From Malacoraja senta (Eukaryota), in assembly GCA_038087875.1 (NCBI GenBank), contig CM075989.1, positions 4,092,001 through 4,156,000 of the forward strand: a stretch of DNA of 64,000 bases. The letters are read 5' to 3'. This document shows, piece by piece, positions 25,639 through 26,244 of the stretch (position 1 is its first letter; each line of letters opens with the position of its first letter). A program made the translations under genes and the position numbers. Below the pieces are notes generated by a model. It was not told the origin of the DNA and did no database searches. It worked only from the letters and a program-made list of their open reading frames with translations.

Positions 25639-26228
25639 CAGGCAGTTGGTGACACAGCAACAGCCAATGTTGGGCACGGCCCCTCGGTGGTACACACCTC
25701 CACATCAAAAACGAGTGCCCTTTCCTCAGGGAAATCCACCGACGTTGCTTTACCGTCCGGGCTGTACTTTGTCCAACCGACCGCACAGGTCCACTCCATG
25801 GGCATCTCAGGGAGGTCACAGTGCAGCAACTCGTTGACTGCCTCCAAGTAAGGGAAACTTTGCTTCTGAGCGATTGTGCGGAAATGCTCGTCAATATTGT
25901 TGCCATACATCTTGGGCAGTTGCAATTCCACATCGGGAAGCATGGAGGTCTCGTTGCCCCACAGGTTGTGGAGTTGGAGATGCTCAATGCTCTTCTGGAT
26001 TGCCTCCTCCGAGTACTCAGCCTCAATATCTCCAAACACCTGCTTGTGGAGACCAGCGGACAGCATCTGGATATTTAGTGGATTCATTCGAGCCTGAGAC
26101 CCGGTACGATTGACGTCCTCCTTTGGCTTTGAGCTTGCAGTGGAGGTCTTGGCCCATCTTGATACGGTGACTGTCCATTTTGGGAGAAGTGAAGTAAGTG
26201 ATTTCCTCTTCAGTAACAGATGATTCAT
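25639..26228 (-). CDS. POLG: POLG first coding exon (exon 2): mitochondrial presequence plus Exo I motif FDVE
   Basis: ATG at 26228 (acaATGa) with an in-frame TGA just upstream. The N-terminus is basic, S/T-rich and free of acidic residues, with no polyQ. Continues NPLNIQMLS...ALVFDVEVC...[12 protein letters not shown]; donor gtaaga. Likely acceptor ccctttcccatcttactttcatggcag, so the exon starts at 26249. Confidence 0.96.
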
Positions 26229-26244
26229 TGTAGCCCTTGCTCAT
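26023..26244 (-). CDS. Putative overlapping upstream ORF (73 aa) in the -1 frame of POLG exon 2
   Basis: ATG (aatcATGa, A at -3) lies 16 nt upstream of the POLG ATG. Open for [10 protein letters not shown]...[17 protein letters not shown]. Translation is unproven. Confidence 0.45.

Follow-up and report, generated by a model that had tools for sequence, protein, structure and literature searches.

The window analysed here, a stretch of 64,000 nucleotides from the skate Malacoraja senta, contains POLG on its minus strand. A 197-codon frame (26228-25635) carries PF18136, and its residues differ from those of relatives at 9 positions in Leucoraja, 13 in Amblyraja and 25 in Rhinoraja. The main ATG at 26228 aligned with the annotated methionine in all nine representatives of elasmobranch POLG clusters, and POLG mRNAs with annotation are available for many elasmobranchs. 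The window lacks POLG residues 331-886. This absence is read as an assembly gap, since 200 N occupy positions 13792-13991 and the one middle POLG exon tested is on a small separate contig (C5061, 4767-4886); a pseudogene reading of the missing residues was dropped for these reasons. Within the skate's own genome, POLG exon 2 has one full match and a short duplicate in an intron. The duplicate (20027-20149, minus strand, in the intron after POLG exon 3) is 123 nt long and repeats the central part of exon 2 (about codons 52-92) with 93% identity; it has a 2-base change with the length kept, and holds the end of the overlapping frame described below without its start. A gene for tRNA-Arg(TCG) (29662-29734, plus strand) immediately precedes the candidate POLG exon 1 and is read from the other strand. 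We take the same tRNA to be a neighbour of human POLG, which would make the linkage old.

The features around the POLG start are as follows.

26023..26244, minus strand: AUG-initiated overlapping upstream open reading frame of 73 codons in the -1 frame relative to POLG, closed by TGA at 26025-26023
26226..26228, minus strand: POLG start codon, context GCTACA ATG AA
25639..26249, minus strand: POLG first coding exon, 21 nt of leader and 196 codons, PF18136; both borders from spliced contigs in four of four runs; donor GTAAGA at 25638
26250..26281, minus strand: polypyrimidine tract (pyrimidine fraction 0.74) and acceptor AG (26251-26250), where the contigs leave the genome; intronic in-frame ATG at 26256
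29179..29420, minus strand: candidate non-coding exon 1 (tentative) with an arbitrary 5' end and the donor AAG/GTAGGT at 29179

The upstream AUG (uAUG; ATG 26244-26242) stands in the context GGAATC ATG AG and precedes the POLG ATG at 26228 by 16 nt, start to start. The first-pass annotation had described an AUG with A at -3, 16 nt upstream of the POLG AUG and open for 73 codons, and the sequence bears this out. The human POLGARF CUG lies 55 nt before the POLG AUG, counted by eye on a row of the Khan 2020 supplement (PMC7059407). Both offsets are 1 mod 3, and the skate YPDA and human HPDA (PMC7059407) are each read from the codons of POLG I-Q-M-L; the earlier assignment to the POLGARF (-1) frame was correct. 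The same PDA letters occur in platypus, birds and several fishes (PMC7059407), in agreement with the earlier caution that residues shared with POLGARF are forced by the POLG frame and do not show homology. The +1 frame is shut at POLG codon 1, on the AUGA of the POLG start, and a long overlap starting at this point therefore has to use the -1 frame. The skate frame and POLGARF have this frame in common by arithmetic, not by descent. After the first stop, at codon 74, eight further -1 stops follow in the first coding exon.

Whether the uAUG is exonic was judged from contigs of 4 of 20 runs (X1, X9, X12 and X16; organisms A, B, C and E). These are related organisms other than the window's own species, and no run is on record as RNA; the contigs are taken as spliced since their alignment leaves the genome at both exon borders. 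In each run one long contig (976, 3558, 4007 and 1630 nt) covers the exon, gapless over 25636-26251 in three runs and over 25636-26248 in the remaining one. Past the exon border the contigs continue with 27, 27, 39 and 56 other letters, and the adjoining intron bin (26260-26391) has depths of 0, 1, 0 and 0. Because the contigs leave the genome at this point and the intron bin is nearly devoid of depth, the acceptor is the AG at 26251-26250. The AGs ending at 26240 and 26236, either of which would remove the uAUG, are unused in these contigs, and a further in-frame ATG at 26256 is intronic, upstream of the acceptor used. The proposal that the uAUG lies downstream of the exon 2 acceptor thus agrees with its exonic position in the spliced contigs of all four related organisms. 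As for the junction between exons 1 and 2, which had been put forward as a check, the contigs fix its acceptor side; the joint to exon 1 was not among the matches listed. The contigs of X1 and X12 end 27 letters beyond their aligned part, as would be expected if the assembly graph branched at the exon 1 donor, and these ends are a hint of unspliced or alternative exon 1 forms.

The composition of exon 1 bears directly on how ribosomes would reach the uAUG. The best upstream donor, at 29179, scores 8 of 9 and would add three AUGs to the leader, at 29241 (6 codons), 29237 (27 codons) and 29210 (18 codons). The frames from 29237 and 29210 would then run across the uAUG and terminate at the AUGA formed by the POLG start. 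The 27-codon upstream frame (29237-26225, minus strand, spliced) crosses the junction if exon 1 ends at 29179, and its stop overlaps the POLG start because POLG begins with ATG A. If one of the weaker donors, at 29297 or 29315, were used instead, no AUG would be gained and the leader would be free of earlier AUGs up to 29461. In the bin 29164-29295, the depth of run X9 was 39.8, similar to its exon depth of 33, and that of the other three runs was 0. Since three AUGs would come earlier in the leader if exon 1 ended at 29179, it is not established that scanning ribosomes meet the uAUG first.

On a mammalian reporter table (PMC4299517), the start context of the uAUG scores 90 (82-97) and that of the main AUG 100 (93-108); on the same table the first exon 1 AUG (29241) scores 92 and the other two 53 and 54. 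Because the context of the exonic uAUG is about as strong as that of the main AUG, POLG would depend on leaky scanning or on competition between the two starts. The earlier claim of dependence on leaky scanning is thus supported by the context scores, with competition as the other possible route. The uAUG would capture part of the scanning ribosomes and yield a 73-codon by-product peptide, and POLG would be left to those that escape it through leaky scanning or through competition from the main AUG, 16 nt downstream. In human reporters, changing the POLGARF CUG to AUG lowered POLG about 14-fold, at a position further upstream than that of the skate AUG (PMC10742948). Out-of-frame uAUGs inhibit less when nearer to the main AUG, and in evidence that comes mostly from yeast the competition was undetectable beyond about 17 nt (PMC9743702). 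The brake would accordingly be real but partial: the strong context argues for a large effect, and the 16-nt spacing lies at the edge of this range of about 17 nt. With about 385 nt between the -1 stop and the next junction, the transcript may also be exposed to some nonsense-mediated decay.

Predicted overlapping upstream open reading frames (oORFs) are a large class: coelacanth has 2,281 of them and zebrafish, where 81.69% of the 25,428 genes have a 5' UTR, has 7,041 (PMC7889888). Across 478 species, 14% of uAUGs start an oORF, and oORFs are depleted genome-wide (PMC7889888). Because of this depletion, one would expect a cost from a strong uAUG ahead of an essential gene, which hints at either selection or bypass. 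The skate frame resembles the class in having an AUG in the leader and an out-of-frame stop inside the coding sequence, so that no reinitiation is possible, and in its predicted repression through capture of scanning ribosomes, the peptide usually being neutral (PMC7889888, PMC9743702). The AUG position lies in the mature 5' leader in the contigs of all four related organisms and the stop falls out of frame inside the POLG coding sequence; the skate POLG frame is a new addition to this known class. Compared with typical oORFs it is somewhat long (in the upper few percent under the null models) and unusually close to the main AUG. If exon 1 ends at 29179, a 6-codon uORF would precede the overlapping inhibitory frame, a likeness to the ATF4-type layout, which consists of a short uORF followed by an overlapping uORF. 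A likeness of POLG to ATF4-type uORFs was pointed out in PMC10742948.

The nearest comparison is POLGARF, also called ORF-Y, of placental mammals (10.1101/2020.03.06.980391, PMC7059407, PMC10742948). Both frames lie in the same gene, the same exon and the same -1 frame and start shortly upstream of the POLG AUG, and in the mammalian system every ribosome that makes POLG passes the alternative start. We infer that the skate frame works like the human POLG leader in this respect, POLG-making ribosomes having to pass a -1 start. The differences are considerable: the skate has an AUG at 16 nt and POLGARF a CUG at 55 nt; the skate exon has a leader of only 21 nt; the skate frame has 73 codons against 260 and stops in the first coding exon, whereas POLGARF stops in the next, so that the skate frame ends long before the conserved C-terminal 64 residues of POLGARF (10.1101/2020.03.06.980391); and the four close relatives gave no clear sign of selection on the skate peptide. 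Human POLG is also throttled in the -1 frame (10.1101/2020.03.06.980391, PMC10742948). The published studies trace the start of mammalian POLGARF to the insertion of a MIR element some 160 million years ago (10.1101/2020.03.06.980391, PMC7059407). Among the 17 fish-grade rows of the Khan alignment, which run from coelacanth to lamprey, 13 have a -1 stop within NPL...QIF when counted by eye, and cartilaginous fish are absent from the portion examined (PMC7059407). Given this origin and these stops, the suggestion of an older brake related to POLGARF is unsupported. Four non-mammalian POLG models (P0016, P0048, P0092 and P0111) have in-frame N-terminal extensions, of 5 residues in the lungfish and 7-15 in the others, so vertebrates may often carry additional AUGs close to the POLG start. 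The 5-codon lungfish extension was dropped as a candidate homologue of the skate AUG, as it is in frame and had no DNA for comparison. A literature search found no report of a uORF in chondrichthyan POLG.

Variation among the close relatives was used to look for constraint. Over the exon, the listed differences from the window numbered 17 of 18 in X1, 23 of 24 in X9, 24 of 28 in X12 and 18 of 21 in X16, each listed difference lying at least 32 letters from an alignment end. The unlisted ones (1, 1, 4 and 3) would hence fall within about 31 nt of either exon end, the region of the uAUG. The named skate proteins gave no closer placement, as none of them was an exact match to a run. On the listed differences, the -1 frame is open with its stop at codon 74 in all four runs, and there is neither an indel nor a new stop. 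The uAUG is likely to be conserved in the four organisms and is probably intact in X1 and in X9, each with high probability by a rough estimate in which the two are not independent. Even so, with 17 variable synonymous sites over about 121 in the POLG exon of the four runs, an intact uAUG in these four organisms says little, because a neutral triplet would survive in all of them about two times in three. In a search of metagenomes for shark or ray DNA, 195 candidates yielded 3 loci, whose identity of 38-53% made them too distant for use.

Within the overlap, 9 of the 11 listed variable sites change the -1 peptide, five of them at its second codon positions. Synonymous variation among these four close relatives was lower inside the overlap than outside (3 vs 14, P 0.048); without CpG-type sites the counts are 3 vs 8 (P 0.30). 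The 64 bases at 26157-26220, just after the start, have no listed difference in any of the four runs. This invariance fits either a constrained overlap or constraint on POLG itself, because these codons start what is presumably the targeting peptide. At matched divergence, N-terminal POLG identity was 0.61 among elasmobranchs and 0.58 among teleosts, against 0.47 for reptiles and 0.40 for frogs, in sets hand-picked from the hits (14 elasmobranch, 19 teleost, 9 reptile and 14 frog proteins).

The peptide itself looks unconstrained from its pattern of changes. No relatives of the 73-residue peptide were found among proteins of 40-128 aa, nor among the 11 candidates of 129-2000 aa. A phmmer search against 1.84 billion representatives returned 2 hits; both were tandem-repeat proteins with repeated matches to a short DLHCK/DLFRC-like stretch and were rejected as chance. 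An atlas search gave no usable hit. A Pfam search of the -1 frame product, in a 77-aa form, gave no family. These blanks do not show novelty. The earlier idea of a possible microprotein is not supported as far as selection is concerned, given the 9 of 11 peptide-changing sites and the lack of any relative found.

The -1 frame is only marginally more open than chance. Among junctions one synonymous choice away from a stop, none of 12 in the overlap and 27 of 117 in the other POLG coding stretches of the window carry one (P 0.043; Fisher 0.052), and this count is the better calibrated test. Over the first 70 codons, 3-4 such stops per species would be expected. Cruder nulls for the open length gave P = 0.016 with synonymous-codon resampling and 0.029 with a geometric model. 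Of the nine POLG control stretches one, the polymerase-domain exon at 11063-10806 (minus strand), has 77 stop-free -1 junctions, compared with 67 in the overlap. Depletion of -1 stops, which had been proposed as a test across species, was seen in the window at p about 0.04-0.05; all open-frame tests are post hoc, and the control exon stays open for longer. Many vertebrates are without stops in an alternative frame of this POLG exon (Loughran et al., 10.1101/2020.03.06.980391).

Taking these results together, we think it probable that the skate frame is an ordinary AUG-started, out-of-frame overlapping uORF, which likely damps POLG by leaky scanning and is not homologous to POLGARF. A more ambitious explanation is that selection has maintained the uAUG and the open -1 frame across cartilaginous fishes as a brake that holds POLG dosage down, the sequence of the peptide being irrelevant. 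The marginal depletion of -1 stops agrees with it, as do the differences listed in four of four runs, free of indels and new stops, the 64 invariant bases, and the throttling of human POLG in the same frame (PMC10742948). N-terminal identity in elasmobranchs is also above that of frogs (0.40) and reptiles (0.47), but it is like that of teleosts, and most fish-grade rows of the Khan alignment carry -1 stops (PMC7059407). Furthermore, the four organisms are so close that survival of a neutral ATG is the likelier outcome, the synonymous deficit is gone after CpG control, and an exon elsewhere in POLG stays open for longer. We regard such a clade-wide brake as rather unlikely, and give no better standing to its being the convergent counterpart of the mammalian layout of uORF and POLGARF. 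The full proposition appears doubtful: a conserved -1 frame with an AUG start that arose in cartilaginous fishes separately from mammals and throttles synthesis of the mitochondrial DNA polymerase.

It is also conceivable that the uAUG matters little, either because it is largely bypassed behind a long exon 1 with a 6-codon uORF and two weak AUGs, or because it is private or recent and absent from relatives. The donor at 29179, whose three earlier AUGs begin with one in strong context (92), and the depth of run X9 in the bin 29164-29295 favour bypass, but three of the four runs have no depth there, and with donors at 29297 or 29315 the leader would hold no earlier AUG as far as 29461. Moreover, subunits reinitiating after the 6-codon uORF would meet two AUGs only 16 nt apart, too close for clean ATF4-like skipping. 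A private AUG would suit two observations. Eleven listed exon sites set the window apart from all four runs, so that a change private to it could plausibly have arisen close to the exon end, and the unlisted differences seem to lie in that region. This explanation as a whole, bypassed or private, is in our view unlikely. True dual coding, in which the 73-residue peptide would be a functional microprotein related to or anticipating POLGARF, is the least credible and we consider it very improbable. It can point to the POLGARF frame, the strong start, the stop at codon 74 unchanged in all four runs, and the PDA and (N/H)E...EE matches to human POLGARF (PMC7059407). These matches, however, follow of necessity from the POLG codons and are also found in birds, platypus and fish without POLGARF (PMC7059407); the conserved C-terminal part of POLGARF is beyond the reach of 73 codons (10.1101/2020.03.06.980391); and most changes in the overlap are non-synonymous in a peptide with neither a Pfam family nor a relative.

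If the skate frame is the ordinary overlapping uORF that we favour, it is one more predicted member of that class, notable for sitting on POLG in the frame of POLGARF. If the brake proves to be conserved and independent of that in mammals, this frame of the exon would have opened on two separate occasions in vertebrate evolution, with the skate as a natural 'CUG-to-AUG' version of POLGARF, and this would suggest that control of dosage preceded the POLGARF protein. Conservation of the AUG across sharks and rays would mean repeated evolution of a translational brake on POLG. In that case, ribosome diversion rather than a protein may have been the original function, which may explain why POLGARF became fixed.
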